Source of the DNA: an uncultured Desulfurococcales archaeon
GTDB taxonomy: Archaea > Thermoproteota > Thermoprotei_A > Sulfolobales > WANQ01
Reading direction: 5' to 3'
Assembly (NCBI GenBank): GCA_964448055.1
Contig: CAYUVB010000001.1
Span: forward strand, 45,436-102,848
Length of the DNA stretch: 57,413 bases
Shown piece by piece: positions 24,815 through 46,422 of this stretch (its first letter is position 1; each line of letters starts with the position of its first letter). The notes under the pieces were generated by a model. It was not told the origin of the DNA and made no database searches. It saw only the letters and a list, made by a program, of their open reading frames with translations. The translations under genes were made by a program, and so were the position numbers.

Positions 24815-26089
24815 TTGAATAGAAGTAAGATAGCATACTTTATTCATAAATTTGTGGTAAAAGTATTTGGGCTCACTAATTATGTATTATCAATGAAGCT
24901 TACATTAACTTTAAGTTTAACCCTATTATTTATTCCACTAGCTATAGTCTTTGCTAATAGGGATGTCTACCCGTTTATAGCTGCTTTGCAAATACCTTTA
25001 CTTCTTCTTCCACTTATTATCAAGAATACAATAGATAATACTACTATTTCGGTTACAAGGATAGTGCATAGGGGTGTGGAGAGACATGGAGCAAAAGCTA
25101 GGATTATATTACGTAATAGCTCAAATAATATTGTAAAGATAAGTGTAGAGGAAAGAATTACGGACAAAGTAATTATTAAGCCCAGCAAGCTTGAAGCTCT
25201 TATTGGACCATATGAGGAATCCACCGTAGAATACAACATATATGCTCCGATAGGCAAACATATTCTTAAGCCATCAACCATAGTAGTATATGATCAGATA
25301 GGTCTCATGGGCAAAGAGATAGAGGCAGAAATACTAGGCGACAATGAGGTAAGAATTAAGCCCGAAATAGCTGAGGCAGAAATTCCTAGAGGATCACTAG
25401 TAGTATATCCTGTCATAGGTGAAGGTTTTAGGAGTAGATTACGTGGAGTAGGCTTTGATTTTCAAGGCCTTAGGGAATACACTTATGGTGATCCCGTTAA
25501 ACTAATTGACTGGAAAACTAGTGCTAAATTACAAAAACTTTACATCAAGGAATATGCTATAGAATCAGGTATTCTATTAATACTAGGTCTTATGGTAGAC
25601 GTGGAGGATTTTCAAGGTAAACCTTCAAACTACGAGTTGTTTGCCAGGAGTATTTCCACGATATCATATTACTTACTACTTCGTGGAGCAAGTATTGGTT
25701 TAGCAATAGTATCGCCAGGTAACCTAATAACAGTGCCACCAGGACGTGGACTAAAATACATTGATAGTATACTTAACGCCTTCTCAGAAGTACCCTGGAT
25801 TAAGGATTCAGTTGATATAGCAGGATTCTTTTCCGGGATAACTAAGATGACATTACATCATACTAGGCCGAGAACTCTATTAATATTTGGCGAAGGCTCT
25901 AGGAAATACACTCAAGTAATAGTAGAGAATGTAAGAAAAAGTAGATTGCTCGGACTAAGTGATATCCGTGTAGCAGTATTAAATAATGATAAAATAACAG
26001 GGATGCTTACTAGACTAGGATTTCATGCAGGATCTATAAGTTCTCCTGATGATCTATATGAGTTGCTAAAGTTAGCGGTGATTATGTGA
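24815..26089 (+). CDS. DUF58 domain protein (vWA-like, MoxR-associated family)
   Basis: DUF58 signature LREYTYGDPVKLIDWKTSAKLQKLYIKEY and two N-terminal TMs. The ATG at 24893 (MKLTLTL...) is a likelier start than the TTG at 24815. Confidence 0.7.
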   Translation: MNRSKIAYFIHKFVVKVFGLTNYVLSMKLTLTLSLTLLFIPLAIVFANRDVYPFIAALQIPLLLLPLIIKNTIDNTTISVTRIVHRGVERHGAKARIILRNSSNNIVKISVEERITDKVIIKPSKLEALIGPYEESTVEYNIYAPIGKHILKPSTIVVYDQIGLMGKEIEAEILGDNEVRIKPEIAEAEIPRGSLVVYPVIGEGFRSRLRGVGFDFQGLREYTYGDPVKLIDWKTSAKLQKLYIKEYAIESGILLILGLMVDVEDFQGKPSNYELFARSISTISYYLLLRGASIGLAIVSPGNLITVPPGRGLKYIDSILNAFSEVPWIKDSVDIAGFFSGITKMTLHHTRPRTLLIFGEGSRKYTQVIVENVRKSRLLGLSDIRVAVLNNDKITGMLTRLGFHAGSISSPDDLYELLKLAVIM

Positions 26090-27078
26090 GGTATGTTATC
26101 TTAAAGTTAAGTAGGATAGCGTATCCTTTAATAATGGCCATGGGCGTTTATATAGCTTTAGCTTCTTCTAGGCTTACTCCTTCACCATTACTATTTATTA
26201 TAACTACTACTATAAGTTTAGCACTGGTTCTTGAATCTATTCGTATAGCACTTTTAGATGAAATAGGTCTAGGTGATGTAGGTCTACTAATATTATCAGC
26301 TAACATATTAGGCTTCATAGGTCTACTTGATGAAGTACTAACACTTATGTATTCTTTAGCAATACTATTGGTGTTAATTGATGGATCTAAGGTTTTGTTT
26401 ACTAGAAATGTGTTTAATTTCTTAAAAAGCAATAAGCTGTTAATAATGTTTATGTTAATGTACTTAATTATGGTTTTTGTTATTATCCATTTAGATATTT
26501 TAGCAGTATTAGCTGGCATGCTTGGACTAGAGAGTGTTAGGAGTTTCATAACCTTACTTTTGGCATCTAAGTCTTCATATATGCTTTTGGGTGTACTTAT
26601 AGGGTTGGCATTGGTAGTAATAGCAAATACGGTAATAGTACGTAAGTCAATCAAGGAGTCATTGCATGAGCTAGAACTTAGCTTAGAAAACGAACTGTAT
26701 AGTACAAGTATTGGGCAAGTAATTGTAGTTGAGTTTATGTTGATATTAATAGCATTTATTATTTATCCATTAGTAATCTATTCATTGATGTTGGTGCGGT
26801 TACCTAGTGGCCTACCTTACATAATGGGTGTAATTATATCCTTTATTGTATGGGTTATCCTACGTAAAGCAGTTTATGGGTTAATATCATTAAGTATAGG
26901 TGGGGAAAGCAGAAAGTTAAAGGTGTTATGGGTTACTGTAGGTTGCATTGTATCAATCTATATTATTGTATCTGAGGTTCTCGGCTATGATCTAAGCATA
27001 TTTAATGAAGTATACAAGGGTATAACTAGGTTAGAAATTAAGTCTATAAAATTATTAATAGAATTACTATGGGGTTGA
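26086..27078 (+). CDS. polytopic membrane protein
   Basis: 330 aa with about 8 TMs. The GTG start overlaps the DUF58 stop by 4 nt. Confidence 0.5.
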   Translation: MRYVILKLSRIAYPLIMAMGVYIALASSRLTPSPLLFIITTTISLALVLESIRIALLDEIGLGDVGLLILSANILGFIGLLDEVLTLMYSLAILLVLIDGSKVLFTRNVFNFLKSNKLLIMFMLMYLIMVFVIIHLDILAVLAGMLGLESVRSFITLLLASKSSYMLLGVLIGLALVVIANTVIVRKSIKESLHELELSLENELYSTSIGQVIVVEFMLILIAFIIYPLVIYSLMLVRLPSGLPYIMGVIISFIVWVILRKAVYGLISLSIGGESRKLKVLWVTVGCIVSIYIIVSEVLGYDLSIFNEVYKGITRLEIKSIKLLIELLWG

Positions 27079-27292: not shown

Positions 27293-29437
27293 TTACCTGA
27301 TCTTTGCTCTGATCACTATGATTATAGCTGTAATTATGACTCCTAGTACCAGTCCTAGGAGTAGTCCTAGTATTAAGTTATTTAGTGTGGTTGTGGTTAC
27401 AGGTATTGTTATTGTTTTTTCTGCAGTATGTGTTTCAGTTACAGTTACTGTAGCAGTTTTCTCCTTAGTTTCAGTAGTTGTAATAGCTGTTGTCGTTACT
27501 GTTGTTGCTGTAGTAGTCTTTGTTATGTTTTTCTCAATAGTATGTGTTATGTTTACATAACTTGTTCTTGTTACTGTAACTGTTACAGTTTCTCTATGGA
27601 TAATAGTGACTGTTGGTAAGGCTGTTATTGTTATACCTACTTGAGGTTTAGGTATACTTGCCTCTACAAGCGCTTTTAGCACTTGCGCATGTAGTGAAGC
27701 TAGCATGTAGTAATATATTGTAGTAGCCCAGTCTTCTTCTATACCTTTATGCGCTTCAGCCAGCTCCATATAATTCAATGCTATTAGCGGTATTGCTCCT
27801 ACATCGAATGCATCTCTTATAGAGGCCTTGGTTTCCTTCTCAACTACTTGAATTATACCTCCTATACCTGTTTTAAATAATTCATGTATAGCTACAACAC
27901 TAGAGGCTACAGCATGTATTGATGCAGCTATGCTACCATAGGTGTCATTGTTTGAGAAGGCTTTCATAGCTAAATCAACATTCATTAGAGCCTCGTCATA
28001 GCTTGAAGGCTTACTGCCAATATCTGATACCAGTGTTTCAAGATAGCTAAAGCTACTTTTAGCCATAGCTAGTAGGCTTTCAGCTATATCTTTAACAGCT
28101 TGTGAGTTTATCATAGACGTGCTTACTCTTGACATTAATAACCATTGTTTAGCGCTATCGGCCCTGGCCTTTGCAAAAGCTAACATATATATTAGTTTAT
28201 CTAGATCACTCCAGCTGGTAACTTTCTTAAGCATATTTATTGACTCATTAAATATTAGTTCAGATAAGTAATAACGGTATCTTGCAGCCAGCAGTGCTTC
28301 AAACTCTGAGAATGTTTCAGCTTTACTAGCCATTACTATGTAGCGTGTAGCTATTATAGTGTTATTTACCTCATTCACAAACTCAGCTAACCTACTATCA
28401 TCGAGATACACTTTAGCATACTCAAGTGCAGTCAACCCCTCAATATAGCTTGTAAATGCATAGCTAGCAGCCTCATAGTACATTTTTGATAATAAGGAAG
28501 ATGATGCTTGTTCCGCATAATTCAAGGATTCATTTATATGTCTTTCAATTATATATCTCACAGGGTATGGTATCTTCTTAGCCAGTTCAAGTGCTTGTTT
28601 CCTAGCATCTTCGCTTCTAGTGAGATAGCTATGTGTCCAGCTAATGACTATGTTAACGGCTTCGCTGGGAAGTTGTGGTAGAGTTATACCACTTGGTAAG
28701 CTTATGTTCATTCCAGTAAAATAGTAAAATGCTTCACGAACGCTTGCAACCTCTACAACTGTAACATTTAATTGTTTTCCAAGCTCTACCACATCTACTG
28801 GTACATATTCTGTTCTAACAAGATATCCTCCGGGTATAGGTTCTCTTACAATCTTTCTAACGTATACTACTCTCTGCCCTATAGGTATGAGGAATACCTT
28901 TGTACCAACTTCTGCAGCAGCTTTAAGCTTAGCAGGAATACCTCCTACGGGTCCTATACTTCCATCGGGACATATCATGCCTGTCATCATTACGTCTGGT
29001 CTAAGGGTCTTATTTAGGAACAAACTTAGTAGTGCGATAGTCATTGCTCCTCCTGCACTAGGACCACCTATTATGAGACTACTGCTCTTCATCCTTATGA
29101 AATAGTCATAGCTATTGAAGCTCTTGCCTGCAATGGTAGCTGCTATTAGAGCGGCTATCCTAGCAGTGGCTTGGGTATCAAGTTCTGTCAATGGTTCTGC
29201 GCTGAAGTATACAATACCATTACCTGGATAAGCTATTGATACATAAAGATCCGCAACAACTCCTCCTTCCTCTTCGCCCCCTATAGTTGTAACAGCTGGA
29301 ACTTTAATGTGTGTACTCTTTATCCATATATAGGATGTACTTGTCTCTGTAACTGCTATGACAGTTAATAATGGTGATACCATAGAGATTAATAGAATAA
29401 TAGCAATAAGCGACTTATATGCCGAAGCCAATATCAT
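27293..29437 (-). CDS. surface-anchored Lon-like (S16) serine protease with helical domain, Thr-rich stalk and C-terminal TM anchor
   Basis: 714 aa with an N-terminal signal/anchor. The Lon proteolytic motif is LIIGGPSAGGAM (Ser127), with GGIPAKLKAAAEVG (Lys170) following. The Ser-Lys spacing of 43 residues equals that of E. coli Lon S679/K722. The C-terminal part is a T/V-rich stretch plus the TM LILGLLLGLVLGVIITAIIIVI. Confidence 0.75.
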   Translation of the reverse strand: MILASAYKSLIAIILLISMVSPLLTVIAVTETSTSYIWIKSTHIKVPAVTTIGGEEEGGVVADLYVSIAYPGNGIVYFSAEPLTELDTQATARIAALIAATIAGKSFNSYDYFIRMKSSSLIIGGPSAGGAMTIALLSLFLNKTLRPDVMMTGMICPDGSIGPVGGIPAKLKAAAEVGTKVFLIPIGQRVVYVRKIVREPIPGGYLVRTEYVPVDVVELGKQLNVTVVEVASVREAFYYFTGMNISLPSGITLPQLPSEAVNIVISWTHSYLTRSEDARKQALELAKKIPYPVRYIIERHINESLNYAEQASSSLLSKMYYEAASYAFTSYIEGLTALEYAKVYLDDSRLAEFVNEVNNTIIATRYIVMASKAETFSEFEALLAARYRYYLSELIFNESINMLKKVTSWSDLDKLIYMLAFAKARADSAKQWLLMSRVSTSMINSQAVKDIAESLLAMAKSSFSYLETLVSDIGSKPSSYDEALMNVDLAMKAFSNNDTYGSIAASIHAVASSVVAIHELFKTGIGGIIQVVEKETKASIRDAFDVGAIPLIALNYMELAEAHKGIEEDWATTIYYYMLASLHAQVLKALVEASIPKPQVGITITALPTVTIIHRETVTVTVTRTSYVNITHTIEKNITKTTTATTVTTTAITTTETKEKTATVTVTETHTAEKTITIPVTTTTLNNLILGLLLGLVLGVIITAIIIVIRAKIR
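27370..27600. repeat. low-complexity GTT/ACT-rich coding repeat (encodes the Thr/Val-rich stalk)
   Basis: Imperfect reiteration of GTTACTGTT/ACAGTTAC-type units. The opposite strand yields spurious V/C-rich ORFs. Confidence 0.7.
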
Positions 29438-29596
29438 TCACCTGTACCCGGTTAGCAAGTTGTTTAGACCTGGATCAGAGTTATGTAATAGCATATTAAA
29501 ACCTCATCGGATATTATCGGATATTGGAAGACAAATATTAAAAACCATTGTTAATTAAGTTTCGTATGAGACTACGATAGCGAGTGATATAGTTAG

Positions 29597-30337
29597 GTGT
29601 TAATAGTGATGGATTTGTTCTCAATTATACTGGTAATCACAGTTATACTATATGTTGTGCTACTAATTATGATTTCAGAGTACATTCGTTCCAGGAAGGG
29701 GTTATCATCTTACTTTACTAGGAGAATAATCCACCTCTTAGCAGGGGACTCCATTGTAGTTTTACCTTTATTCAAGCATGTAGTGTATCCCGTAGTAATT
29801 ACAATAATACTTGCGTTAATGGTTTTTATAGGTCTTAGTAGACCTGGTAATCCCTTCTCAAAGACCATGGTTGTAACAGAATATGATAAATTACATGTAT
29901 ATGGTCCTTTGTATTACATATTAGCTATAATGATCTTGGTAATATTGTTCTATAATCACCCTGAGATAGTCATAGCATCAACCATGATAATGGCCTGGGG
30001 TGATGGTTTTGCATCATTAGTACCCAAATATATTAGTAATCCTCATATGATATTCAATAGTGGCGTGAGATATCGTAAAAGCATTGAAGGTACACTAAGT
30101 ATGATTATAATGGGATTTCTTGGAGCAATTGTAGGCTTGTTTCTGAGCAATATTTTAACAGGTTACAGCTTCAACATAGTAGGTTTGATACCTATCGTAT
30201 TGATTGCAAGTATTGTATCTGGTATAGTGGAAATGCTGAGTGTTGGACCACTGGCTAGCTTTGACAACCTAACTGTACCTATGGCATCAACTGTAACAAT
30301 ACTCTTATTAGAGCATATGCTCCCAAGCATTACTTAA
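29597..30337 (+). CDS. CTP-dependent polyprenol (dolichol/phytol) kinase family membrane protein
   Basis: 246 aa and polytopic. RRIIHLLAGD, AWGDGFASLV and RKSIEGTLSM resemble the COG0170 Sec59/VTE5 family. Confidence 0.65.
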   Translation: MLIVMDLFSIILVITVILYVVLLIMISEYIRSRKGLSSYFTRRIIHLLAGDSIVVLPLFKHVVYPVVITIILALMVFIGLSRPGNPFSKTMVVTEYDKLHVYGPLYYILAIMILVILFYNHPEIVIASTMIMAWGDGFASLVPKYISNPHMIFNSGVRYRKSIEGTLSMIIMGFLGAIVGLFLSNILTGYSFNIVGLIPIVLIASIVSGIVEMLSVGPLASFDNLTVPMASTVTILLLEHMLPSIT

Positions 30338-44684: not shown

Positions 44685-46422
44685 TTGAGTAAATTATCTC
44701 TCTAAACCTAATTTTTAATAATTTAAGCCATCTACGATCACTATATCTTTTATCAGCTAACACTATGATAACGTTGTCTCCATCCTTACGAATAGATCTA
44801 CCAATAGCTTGTCTGATAGTTATAGATGTTATCCTCATTAAAGCATCATAGTAGCTTACTTTGAGTTTTTCAGCGAGTATACTTACCCTCTTACGGGTAT
44901 AATCATCGGGTTGAGGAAACGGTATGCCAGCAATAACAACAATATCTACTAAACTATGTCCGTTTTCATCCACGAATTCTACTCCTTCACTAAGTTTACC
45001 TGAGGCTACAGCTACTATAACACCTCTATCTCTTCGTGCAAATTCTACTGCTTCAGCAAGAATAGTATCCCTTTCTTCAACAAATAGTGGAATGCTACCA
45101 CTAATTCTAGATGTGATATTTCTTGCCTCAGTATAACTCGTAGTTATAACTAATACATTTTTCCTTGACAACTTATGTGCTTTCTCAATTAACTTCGCAT
45201 ACTTAGACCACATTTCCTCTCCACGATAATCCCATTTACTAGTAACATCCCATACGATGACCCAAAATCTACGGCTATTAGGGAAAACGGGTCCGTACTC
45301 TAATTCAACATCTATATAATCATAATCACCACTGATACCCCATGAGCTACAAATATACTCTACATCCGGTAAAGTACCACTCATGAATATAAGTCTTTTA
45401 GGAATAGATAATACATTTGTGAGAATACTAGGATCAAGAGGTTTAACTACCAAGAGCTTTACATTACCTTGAATTGAACGATATACGTGGAATCCTGGAA
45501 GCGTAACATGATACAAGAACTCATATACACGTTTAACCCAATTAGCTTCAACAACATACTCTAACATTATATGTTGGGCTACATCACTAGCAGCTTCGCC
45601 GAGCAGCTCTAGCTCATCCTCACCAAGCCTTAATGGTAGTCTTACCTCCTCATACCATTCCCTACTAGCACCATCAACTATGTCGACTATACTATCTCTA
45701 ATGTTTTTCAATAATTCTACAACATTTTTCCTGATTGAATCACTTACACGTTTTTCAGCTTGCCTTATAGCTTGTTCTATGATTCCACGGGTAATCTTTT
45801 TCTCATACATATCTGGGATCTTATCAATGTTATGTGCTTCATCTATTACTAACACACTATCACTTAGTATATCAGCTATGGTTGGTTCACGTACACTAGG
45901 ATCAAATATATAGGGGTATGAAACAACTATCACGTGAGCTTCGCTTATTAATTGACGGAGAGAATGATAAGTACATATTGGTGGAGTACTACTATTGAGC
46001 TTAAATACAGCAAGTAGGACATCATCAGCTTCACTTAAAGCTCTTATAACCCTTGAGGTACTAATACTGTTTCTTAATGGACATTTTTGGCAATCAATAT
46101 CTATACTCTCAATACCATCCCTCCCAGAGTATAGAGGGCAAGCATCTTTCTTAGCGATAAGGAATGTAGGTATTACATCCTTAAACCATCTCTTTAATTC
46201 CTTCAGATACATATCCATTTGTGATCTAGTTCTAACACTTACTATGAGCTTTAAGCCTTCTCTAAGAGCGTATTTTAGTCCAGCATAAAGGATCATAAGA
46301 GTCTTACCACTACCTGTAGGACTGTCAAGAAGTACAATTCTATTATTAATTAAATCCTCGTATACCCTATCAACAACGGGTTTCTGATATCTTCTCCAAA
46401 CAATACCTCCTTCGCCTAGCAA
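44635..46422 (-). CDS. xpd: XPD/Rad3-family 4Fe-4S DNA helicase
   Basis: Walker A DSPTGSGKT and DEAH box VIDEAHNI. Four Cys lie between motifs I and II (DACPLY, CQKCPL, PPICTYH). The C-terminal motif is QAIGRSIR. Confidence 0.85.
   Translation of the reverse strand: MLGEGGIVWRRYQKPVVDRVYEDLINNRIVLLDSPTGSGKTLMILYAGLKYALREGLKLIVSVRTRSQMDMYLKELKRWFKDVIPTFLIAKKDACPLYSGRDGIESIDIDCQKCPLRNSISTSRVIRALSEADDVLLAVFKLNSSTPPICTYHSLRQLISEAHVIVVSYPYIFDPSVREPTIADILSDSVLVIDEAHNIDKIPDMYEKKITRGIIEQAIRQAEKRVSDSIRKNVVELLKNIRDSIVDIVDGASREWYEEVRLPLRLGEDELELLGEAASDVAQHIMLEYVVEANWVKRVYEFLYHVTLPGFHVYRSIQGNVKLLVVKPLDPSILTNVLSIPKRLIFMSGTLPDVEYICSSWGISGDYDYIDVELEYGPVFPNSRRFWVIVWDVTSKWDYRGEEMWSKYAKLIEKAHKLSRKNVLVITTSYTEARNITSRISGSIPLFVEERDTILAEAVEFARRDRGVIVAVASGKLSEGVEFVDENGHSLVDIVVIAGIPFPQPDDYTRKRVSILAEKLKVSYYDALMRITSITIRQAIGRSIRKDGDNVIIVLADKRYSDRRWLKLLKIRFREIIYSTTDLFEKVLRAQDILK

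Follow-up and report, generated by a model that had tools for sequence, protein, structure and literature searches.

Can a Lon-type protease that carries no ATPase module act outside an archaeal membrane, and what would it do there? The question is raised by a gene in a 57,413-nucleotide stretch of DNA (hereafter the window: positions 45,436 to 102,848 of the forward strand of contig CAYUVB010000001.1, GenBank assembly GCA_964448055.1) from an uncultured Desulfurococcales archaeon. The window has a G+C content of 36.8%, and the assembly that contains it measures 1.7 Mb and is 95% complete. We consider it likely that the gene product is an ATP-independent Ser-Lys endopeptidase of Lon fold, exported by the Sec pathway, held by its C-terminus on the outer face of the cytoplasmic membrane, engaged in housekeeping of the envelope and belonging to the MEROPS group S16.A12. 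The layout of the gene, in window coordinates and in the order of its product, is the following (AF2 stands for AlphaFold2):

27293..29437, minus strand: complete coding sequence of the protease, 714 residues, stop codon at 27293-27295
29354..29437, minus strand: likely N-terminal Sec-type signal sequence (residues 1-28; n-region with K8, h-region 9-27, candidate cleavage VIA/V)
28715..29326, minus strand: Lon (S16) proteolytic domain (residues 38-241; Pfam, phmmer, Foldseek, AF2)
29057..29059, minus strand: codon of Ser127, predicted nucleophile (GGPSAGG, residues 124-130; alignment to 1rr9)
28928..28930, minus strand: codon of Lys170, predicted general base (GGIPAK, residues 165-170; alignment to K722)
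27659..28666, minus strand: family-specific all-alpha domain of 12 long helices in two homologous halves (residues 258-593)
28043..28045, minus strand: codon of Tyr465, sole invariant residue of the helical domain (118-sequence alignment)
27392..27601, minus strand: Thr/Val-rich low-complexity stalk with two N-X-T sequons (residues 613-682; composition)
27311..27376, minus strand: C-terminal transmembrane (TM) helix (residues 688-709; hydropathy 3.2)
27296..27310, minus strand: basic tail RAKIR, predicted to be cytoplasmic (residues 710-714; read from the sequence)

The identity of the catalytic domain is plain from the sequence. Residues 102-186 match the Pfam family Lon_C (PF05362) with 48 bits (cut-off 21.1; E 1.4e-12), and none of Pfam's AAA families matches the protein at E up to 1. 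The equivalogs TIGR00763, TIGR00764 and TIGR02902 were hit over the protease segment only, with 37-47 bits against cut-offs of 516-723, and so was the LonC equivalog TIGR02903 (45.3 bits against 678.8). When phmmer was run against the Protein Data Bank (PDB), residues 46-188 aligned to the proteolytic domain (P-domain) of Escherichia coli Lon (E 1.2e-9), with S127 and K170, which lie 43 residues apart, falling on S679(A) and K722 of 1rr9, and aligning in the same manner with 6on2. The AF2 model of the whole protein has a mean predicted local distance difference test (pLDDT) score of 87.9 and a predicted template-modelling score (pTM) of 0.81; the protease domain, mostly above pLDDT 90, retrieved Lon P-domains (3wu6 and 1rr9) from the PDB with Foldseek at E 5e-10 (template-modelling score TMt 0.79-0.82, root-mean-square deviation ~2.5 Å). 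The protein thus has the fold and the Ser-Lys dyad of S16 proteases and no ATPase module, as a preliminary description of this DNA had put forward, down to the 43-residue spacing that it shares with S679/K722 of the E. coli enzyme. The same description expected orthologues to keep the dyad, and both residues are invariant in all 118 homologues of our alignment, together with G124-P126, G162-G166, D87 and Q89; they are kept in a divergent paralogue clade as well. A family-specific β-hairpin of ~25 residues (190-215), inserted relative to E. coli Lon, contains a glycine (G204) found in 98% of the sequences.

To locate the domain, hydrophobic segments were scored by Kyte-Doolittle hydropathy at a cut-off of 1.6, and signal-peptide cleavage was judged by eye. 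Only residues 1-33 (peak 2.7) and 680-714 (3.2) are strongly hydrophobic; a borderline window at 121-139 (1.61 against the cut-off) falls within the folded protease domain. Because hydrophobic segments occur only at the two ends and the C-terminal tail is basic, the 650-residue middle should lie on the side of the membrane opposite to the tail. Both ends recur in the family, the N-terminal hydrophobic segment in 114 of the 118 homologues and the C-terminal TM helix in 104 of them, usually followed by a basic tail. The ectodomain also contains nine N-X-S/T sequons, as compared to 3.5 ± 1.6 in shuffled sequences. The resulting density for the protease (1.2 per 100 residues) is reached by 1.9% of 539 cytoplasmic-type open reading frames (ORFs) of the same genome, which average 0.29; ORFs of the signal-peptide class average 1.04.

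The C-terminal part points in the same direction. The stalk contains 30 threonines in 70 residues (43%), is modelled by AF2 at a low pLDDT (40-60), and is underlain by no tandem DNA repeat that we could find; its Thr fraction is 0.38-0.49 in the closest relatives (P0003-P0008), and some other lineages have Thr-rich stalks too. The order proposed earlier (a Thr-rich stalk, then a TM helix and a basic tail) stands. A signal sequence combined with Thr stalk, TM helix and basic tail was seen on at least six other ORFs of the window's genome, among them a solute-binding protein (SBP_bac_5) and a protein with the met-zincin motif HEIGHxxGxxH:

C5:8032-8973, ORF with the same Thr-stalk anchoring module
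C14:217-3063, ORF with the same module
C7:34352-36022, ORF with the same module
C2:80172-81164, ORF with the same module
C64:4255-6624, ORF with the same module
C6:23712-25646, ORF with the same module

No obvious sorting motif was found at the stalk/TM junction of these six, and the module gives the impression of a device by which this organism anchors surface proteins in general. Some orthologues from Thermococcus and Pyrococcus end in a CGP-CTERM sorting signal (PF27854), which is typically preceded by Thr/Ser-rich stretches read as O-glycosylation sites (preprint 10.1101/2023.06.07.544157). The window protein has no match to PF27854 and no cysteine in the sequence before its TM helix (PVTTTTLNN); what it has in common with CGP-CTERM proteins is the layout alone, that is a Thr-rich region, a TM helix and a basic tail. 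Its stalk is probably glycosylated; O-glycosylation and association with the S-layer are putative.

Considering the N-termini, the sequons, the anchoring module and the CGP-CTERM orthologues together, we reason that both the protease and the helical domain reside outside the membrane, in agreement with what had been proposed. The evidence that speaks against a cytoplasmic Lon domain (in an N-in/C-in hairpin or in a protein that is not exported at all) is indirect; even so, we find such a location extremely improbable, since it would have to be reconciled with hydrophobic segments confined to the termini, with a basic tail that puts the middle on the opposite side, with an enrichment in sequons such as this genome's exported proteins typically show, with an anchoring module common to a solute-binding protein, with CGP-CTERM signals on orthologues and with canonical AXA-type signal peptides in relatives.

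The manner of anchoring appears to differ from the double anchor first suggested. AF2 places a helix at residues 4-24, followed by a low-confidence linker (25-33), and the N-termini of the family generally have an n-region with K/R, an h-region of 12-20 residues and small residues at positions -3 and -1, with candidate cleavage sites VIA/VTE in the window protein and ALA/Q, ISA/D, VNA/A and ASA/S in relatives (the slash marks the cut). The segment is therefore likely to be a cleavable Sec signal peptide, the alternative being a retained signal anchor, and the n-h-c layout with small residues at -3/-1 makes a type I mature protein, singly anchored at its C-terminus, the more likely form.

What, then, stands in the place of the missing motor? 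The protease domain is followed by an all-helical domain of ~340 residues (258-593), shorter than the ~400 given for it before, which AF2 modelled on its own with high confidence (pLDDT 96.3, pTM 0.93). The view that it belongs to no described family or fold was borne out: it matched no Pfam family and, by phmmer, no PDB sequence, while fold searches returned at best E 0.11 in the PDB (TM-score <=0.21) and E 0.055 in BFVD (TM-score <=0.3). A hidden Markov model of the domain retrieved from the PDB only weak matches, to tetratricopeptide repeat (TPR) or designed repeat proteins (best E 0.0025; TPR-like ones at 0.03-0.4). Among 1.84 billion representative sequences phmmer recovered the domain in 70 proteins, all of the same layout or fragments of it, and in no other architecture; it is mostly located at ~230-600 of chains of 540-700 residues, and about ten shorter proteins resemble fragments. 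Aligning residues 250-345 with 441-523 by hhalign gave a probability of 95.7% (93% for the first against the second half), hence the domain seems to have originated by an internal tandem duplication. Tyr465 is conserved in every one of the 118 sequences and in five divergent second-copy paralogues. In the whole-protein model (pTM 0.81) the domain is predicted to pack on the protease domain.

The family to which the protein belongs is not new. We scored 399 homologues of 600-720 residues, distributed over Korarchaeota, Desulfurococcales, Methanomethylicia, Archaeoglobi, Methanosarcinales/Methanoperedens, Thermococci, Methanothermococcus, Methanofastidiosia and Hadarchaeota. In a sample of the phylum, 80 of 201 genomes had a match at E <=1e-20, with some Thermoproteota families matched in every genome (e.g., 8/8, 15/15) and others in none. 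The closest organism-named relative belongs to a metagenome-assembled genome (MAG) of the Pyrodictiaceae (L001; 75% identity). Searches with tblastn reached Thermococcus loci at E 1e-53 to 1e-57 (query ~44-600, ~28-33% identity over ~550 residues), and the proteins of these loci show 63-76% identity, at a query coverage of 86-100%, with named Thermococcales entries (P. abyssi, P. horikoshii, T. gammatolerans and T. onnurineus were compared). The database names of the Thermococcales members are 'S16 family serine protease', 'Archaeal serine protease' and, wrongly, 'ATP-dependent protease'. By sequence, the window gene belongs to this catalogued 'archaeal serine protease' family and does not represent a novel type of protein; in MEROPS the family appears as S16.A12, 'PF1438 (P. 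furiosus)', an uncharacterised peptidase of Crenarchaeota, Euryarchaeota and Korarchaeota (PMC3625958). The link to PF1438 was made through the orthologues of P. abyssi, T. gammatolerans and T. onnurineus, the clustering reported in PMC2605481 and the MEROPS entry in PMC3625958.

With S16.A12 the window protein has in common the signal sequence, Lon_C, the helical domain, a Ser/Thr linker and the C-terminal TM helix; it differs from the Thermococcales members in its much longer, nearly pure Thr/Val stalk and in lacking the CGP-CTERM motif. Within its order it falls in the 'long' one of two paralogous subfamilies. A second copy in the same genome (contig C69:2141-3985, which is L031:172-2016, minus strand) encodes 614 residues with 28% identity. 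Its product has a signal peptide, then Lon_C, where Ser and Lys are both present, a helical domain that retains the invariant Tyr, and a TM helix at the C-terminus; a Thr stalk is lacking. Comparable second copies are present in several genomes of the order, and all of them keep Ser, Lys and Tyr465. Searches of the window's genome with TIGR00764 and Lon_C matched only the two ATPase-less paralogues and no canonical LonB, an absence that a genome 95% complete leaves unproven.

Several homologues depart from this layout. Forms of ~290-330 residues, found in many other Thermoproteota families (e.g., G017:C2:5480-6106, G192:C19:16058-16666), match the protease part only (profile ~35-235) and are possibly secreted Lon-domain-only proteases, as far as their sequences go. 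A Hadarchaeota homologue (L028:5411-9307) reaches 1298 residues, with ~650 extra residues between helical domain and C-terminal TM helix. Orthologues of one genus have in-frame stops (G118:C1:1365902-1367608 and G177:C1:788448-790199; two TAA and one TAG, respectively) and may be pseudogenes or sequencing errors. The single bacterial match, in a Campylobacterales MAG (L029:1632-2288; 271 residues, 35% identical to residues 28-247), could reflect a transfer or a binning contaminant.

How such an enzyme might operate can be approached from better-known systems. Like YlbL and SepM, the window protein pairs a Lon_C Ser-Lys domain with the absence of AAA+ and with a membrane tether, its catalytic domain being (by prediction) outside. 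Unlike these proteins, which have an N-terminal anchor and a PDZ domain, it is anchored at the C-terminus, has no Pfam match to PDZ (the region after the protease is all-helical) and carries the 340-residue helical domain behind the protease. SepM of streptococci acts on a competence peptide. The SepM model NF041438 matched the protease with 34.7 bits (E 9.6e-9), short of its cut-off of 200. YlbL of Bacillus subtilis, a membrane-anchored extracytoplasmic Lon-domain protease without ATPase, acts on YneA (PMC6051672). By analogy, the window protein would work like YlbL and SepM, but outside that family.

The target-specificity of these studied bacterial relatives lends some substance to a reading in which the archaeal enzyme is a dedicated processing or maturation protease, acting on S-layer or pilin-like precursors or on a signalling peptide. 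The E-value of the SepM match would agree with it; the helical domain has an invariant Tyr and, on its surface, a conserved motif, as would be expected of a specific binding site, and the two paralogues in a genome might each have a specificity of their own. Yet in no lineage does a conserved partner gene adjoin the protease, the SepM score is far under the cut-off, and the PDZ domain is missing; we hold dedicated processing to be possible, albeit rather doubtful.

Among ATP-dependent relatives, LonA and LonB have the same P-domain fold and dyad, and the GPSAG active-site motif of the window protein resembles the LonA type; distinct from both, the window protein has no AAA+, no LonB-type membrane insertion within an ATPase, and a predicted topology outside rather than in the cytoplasm. 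LonC (Meiothermus/Thermus, 4fwd) is like it in hydrolysing no ATP and in having, where a working motor would be, an additional module that is largely helical; LonC is, however, cytoplasmic, has a degenerate AAA-like domain and is only marginally similar in sequence (E 0.2). BepA, a periplasmic M48 metalloprotease, is fused to a TPR helical repeat domain that presumably binds substrates or partners. The resemblance of BepA to the window protein would be a functional analogy only; neither in sequence nor in fold are the two related. Under S16, a review devoted to membrane-associated proteases of archaea has only the ATP-dependent, cytoplasm-facing LonB (PMC4343526).

In the mechanism that we favour, the protein would be exported by the Sec pathway and its N-terminal helix cleaved, yielding a type I protein; the C-terminal TM helix would then hold the protease on the outer face of the cytoplasmic membrane, at the end of the Thr stalk. 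The helical domain would stand in for Lon's AAA+ ring or for the PDZ domain found in YlbL and SepM, and would serve as a substrate-capturing or gating element, possibly as an oligomerisation scaffold. The substrates would be unfolded or loosely structured exported polypeptides between membrane and S-layer, and the role would be one of housekeeping (quality control or processing in the envelope) and not of feeding.

Feeding deserves to be weighed, as it is the role to which family members have been assigned in the literature. [quoted passage not shown] Peptide fermenters are numerous among the carriers (Thermococcales, Staphylothermus, Thermogladius, Korarchaeum), and the window's genome encodes the surface-anchored SBP_bac_5 protein, a peptide-type binding protein. 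An exoprotease that digests environmental protein at the cell surface, to supply peptide transporters, would fit these observations. It would not account for the presence of the family in archaea that are not known to live on external protein (Methanothermococcus, Methanofastidiosia, Methanoperedens, Archaeoglobus/Geoglobus), nor for an enzyme that is tethered instead of released, and no peptide transporter genes adjoin the protease in the 39 loci that we surveyed. Moreover, those archaeal proteases that are known to serve in feeding belong to the subtilases, pyrolysin among them. We therefore deem a nutritional role unlikely.

Housekeeping is preferred over feeding, with moderate confidence, because methanogens and other archaea that live without peptide feeding retain the family and because the enzyme is tethered, not released. 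Its presence in every sampled genome of several Thermoproteota families, and the retention of two paralogous copies in several genomes of the order, speak for the housekeeping role as well. Taken further, and only as a tentative suggestion, the family might provide S-layered archaea with the general protease for extracytoplasmic protein quality control that has long been missing in them, a functional counterpart of DegP, BepA or YlbL, in which a duplicated helical fold not seen before would capture or gate substrates without ATP on a Lon catalytic core.

The surroundings of the gene were compared in the 39 loci just mentioned: that of L001, 28 others (from Thermococci, methanogens and Hadarchaeota) and those of ten further Thermoproteota genomes. 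To the left of the protease gene lie genes for DUF4129 and DUF4350 proteins (DUF, domain of unknown function), a nucleoside phosphorylase (opposite strand), and then DUF58 and polytopic proteins; to the right, a 246-residue protein and a DUF92 protein are followed by an operon with MoxR (AAA_3) and DUF58. The preliminary description had the protease sitting exactly between two MoxR-type modules, which is correct as to position; in our reading this reflects synteny specific to the lineage. Were the protease a functional component of these MoxR/DUF58/DUF4129 envelope modules, processing their products or being activated by them, for instance, the conserved arrangement in L001 (at 75% identity) would be in keeping with it; L001 is, however, the only locus to repeat the arrangement, and because the two genomes are so close this synteny has no functional weight. 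No homologue of MoxR, DUF58 or DUF4129 occurs within ~10 kb of the protease in the 28 other loci or in the ten Thermoproteota genomes (38 loci). In the window itself, the gene lies on the strand opposite to all these neighbours bar the phosphorylase, is monocistronic, and has an upstream intergenic region to itself; it converges with the gene at 26086-27078 and diverges from the one at 29597. A functional tie to the MoxR/DUF58 genes is thus not demonstrable from the sequences, and we judge it very improbable.

As to the start codon, the public gene call for the same protein has 712 residues and a TTG start at 29431, two codons inside the ATG. A GGTGA at 29438-29442 precedes the TTG by 6 nucleotides and directly abuts the ATG; given this spacing, the TTG start is the better placed.

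Across the 39 loci no conserved gene neighbourhood or partner gene emerged. The Thermococcus copies adjoin a CitMHS transporter, Usp proteins and a nitroreductase. The sole recurrent neighbour is a gene for a thioredoxin-like (CxxC) lipoprotein, directly upstream in four Thermococci-like MAGs, which gives a weak hint of an extracytoplasmic protein-folding context:

L002:3667-4116, thioredoxin-like lipoprotein gene
L013:9318-9869, thioredoxin-like lipoprotein gene
L015:5827-6342, thioredoxin-like lipoprotein gene
L016:9419-..., thioredoxin-like lipoprotein gene

An apparent fusion of thioredoxin and protease in L016 spans a run of N/X and was discarded as an assembly artefact.

Several points weigh against the reading of a housekeeping protease on the cell surface. 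The cleavage of the signal peptide rests on inspection by eye, the gene context is not conserved and so yields no functional clue, and the part that we assign to the helical domain is pure deduction. Lon P-domains are normally hexameric, and the bulky helical domain might preclude a ring. YlbL purified without its TM helix was inactive in vitro (PMC6051672), and the activity of such enzymes may hence need context. Finally, our literature search (by locus tags and family names) gave no biochemical data for any family member and retrieved no biochemical or genetic study of the family, only catalogue and genome-paper mentions; the main text of the T. barophilus secretome paper does not mention it. 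To call the protein barely studied, as was done at the outset, is accordingly fair, with the qualification that it is already catalogued (MEROPS, NCBI, UniProt) and was named putatively extracellular in 2009 (PMC2718504).

For the window, the outcome is an accurate annotation and the removal of an implied functional link to the MoxR modules, and its value for this locus is moderate to low. As an object of experiments the family has more to offer. Little is understood of how proteolysis proceeds without an energy source outside the membrane of archaea, the family is widespread in hyperthermophilic and methanogenic archaea, and its conserved dyad and confidently modelled orphan helical domain recommend it for structure determination and for genetic work in Thermococcus.

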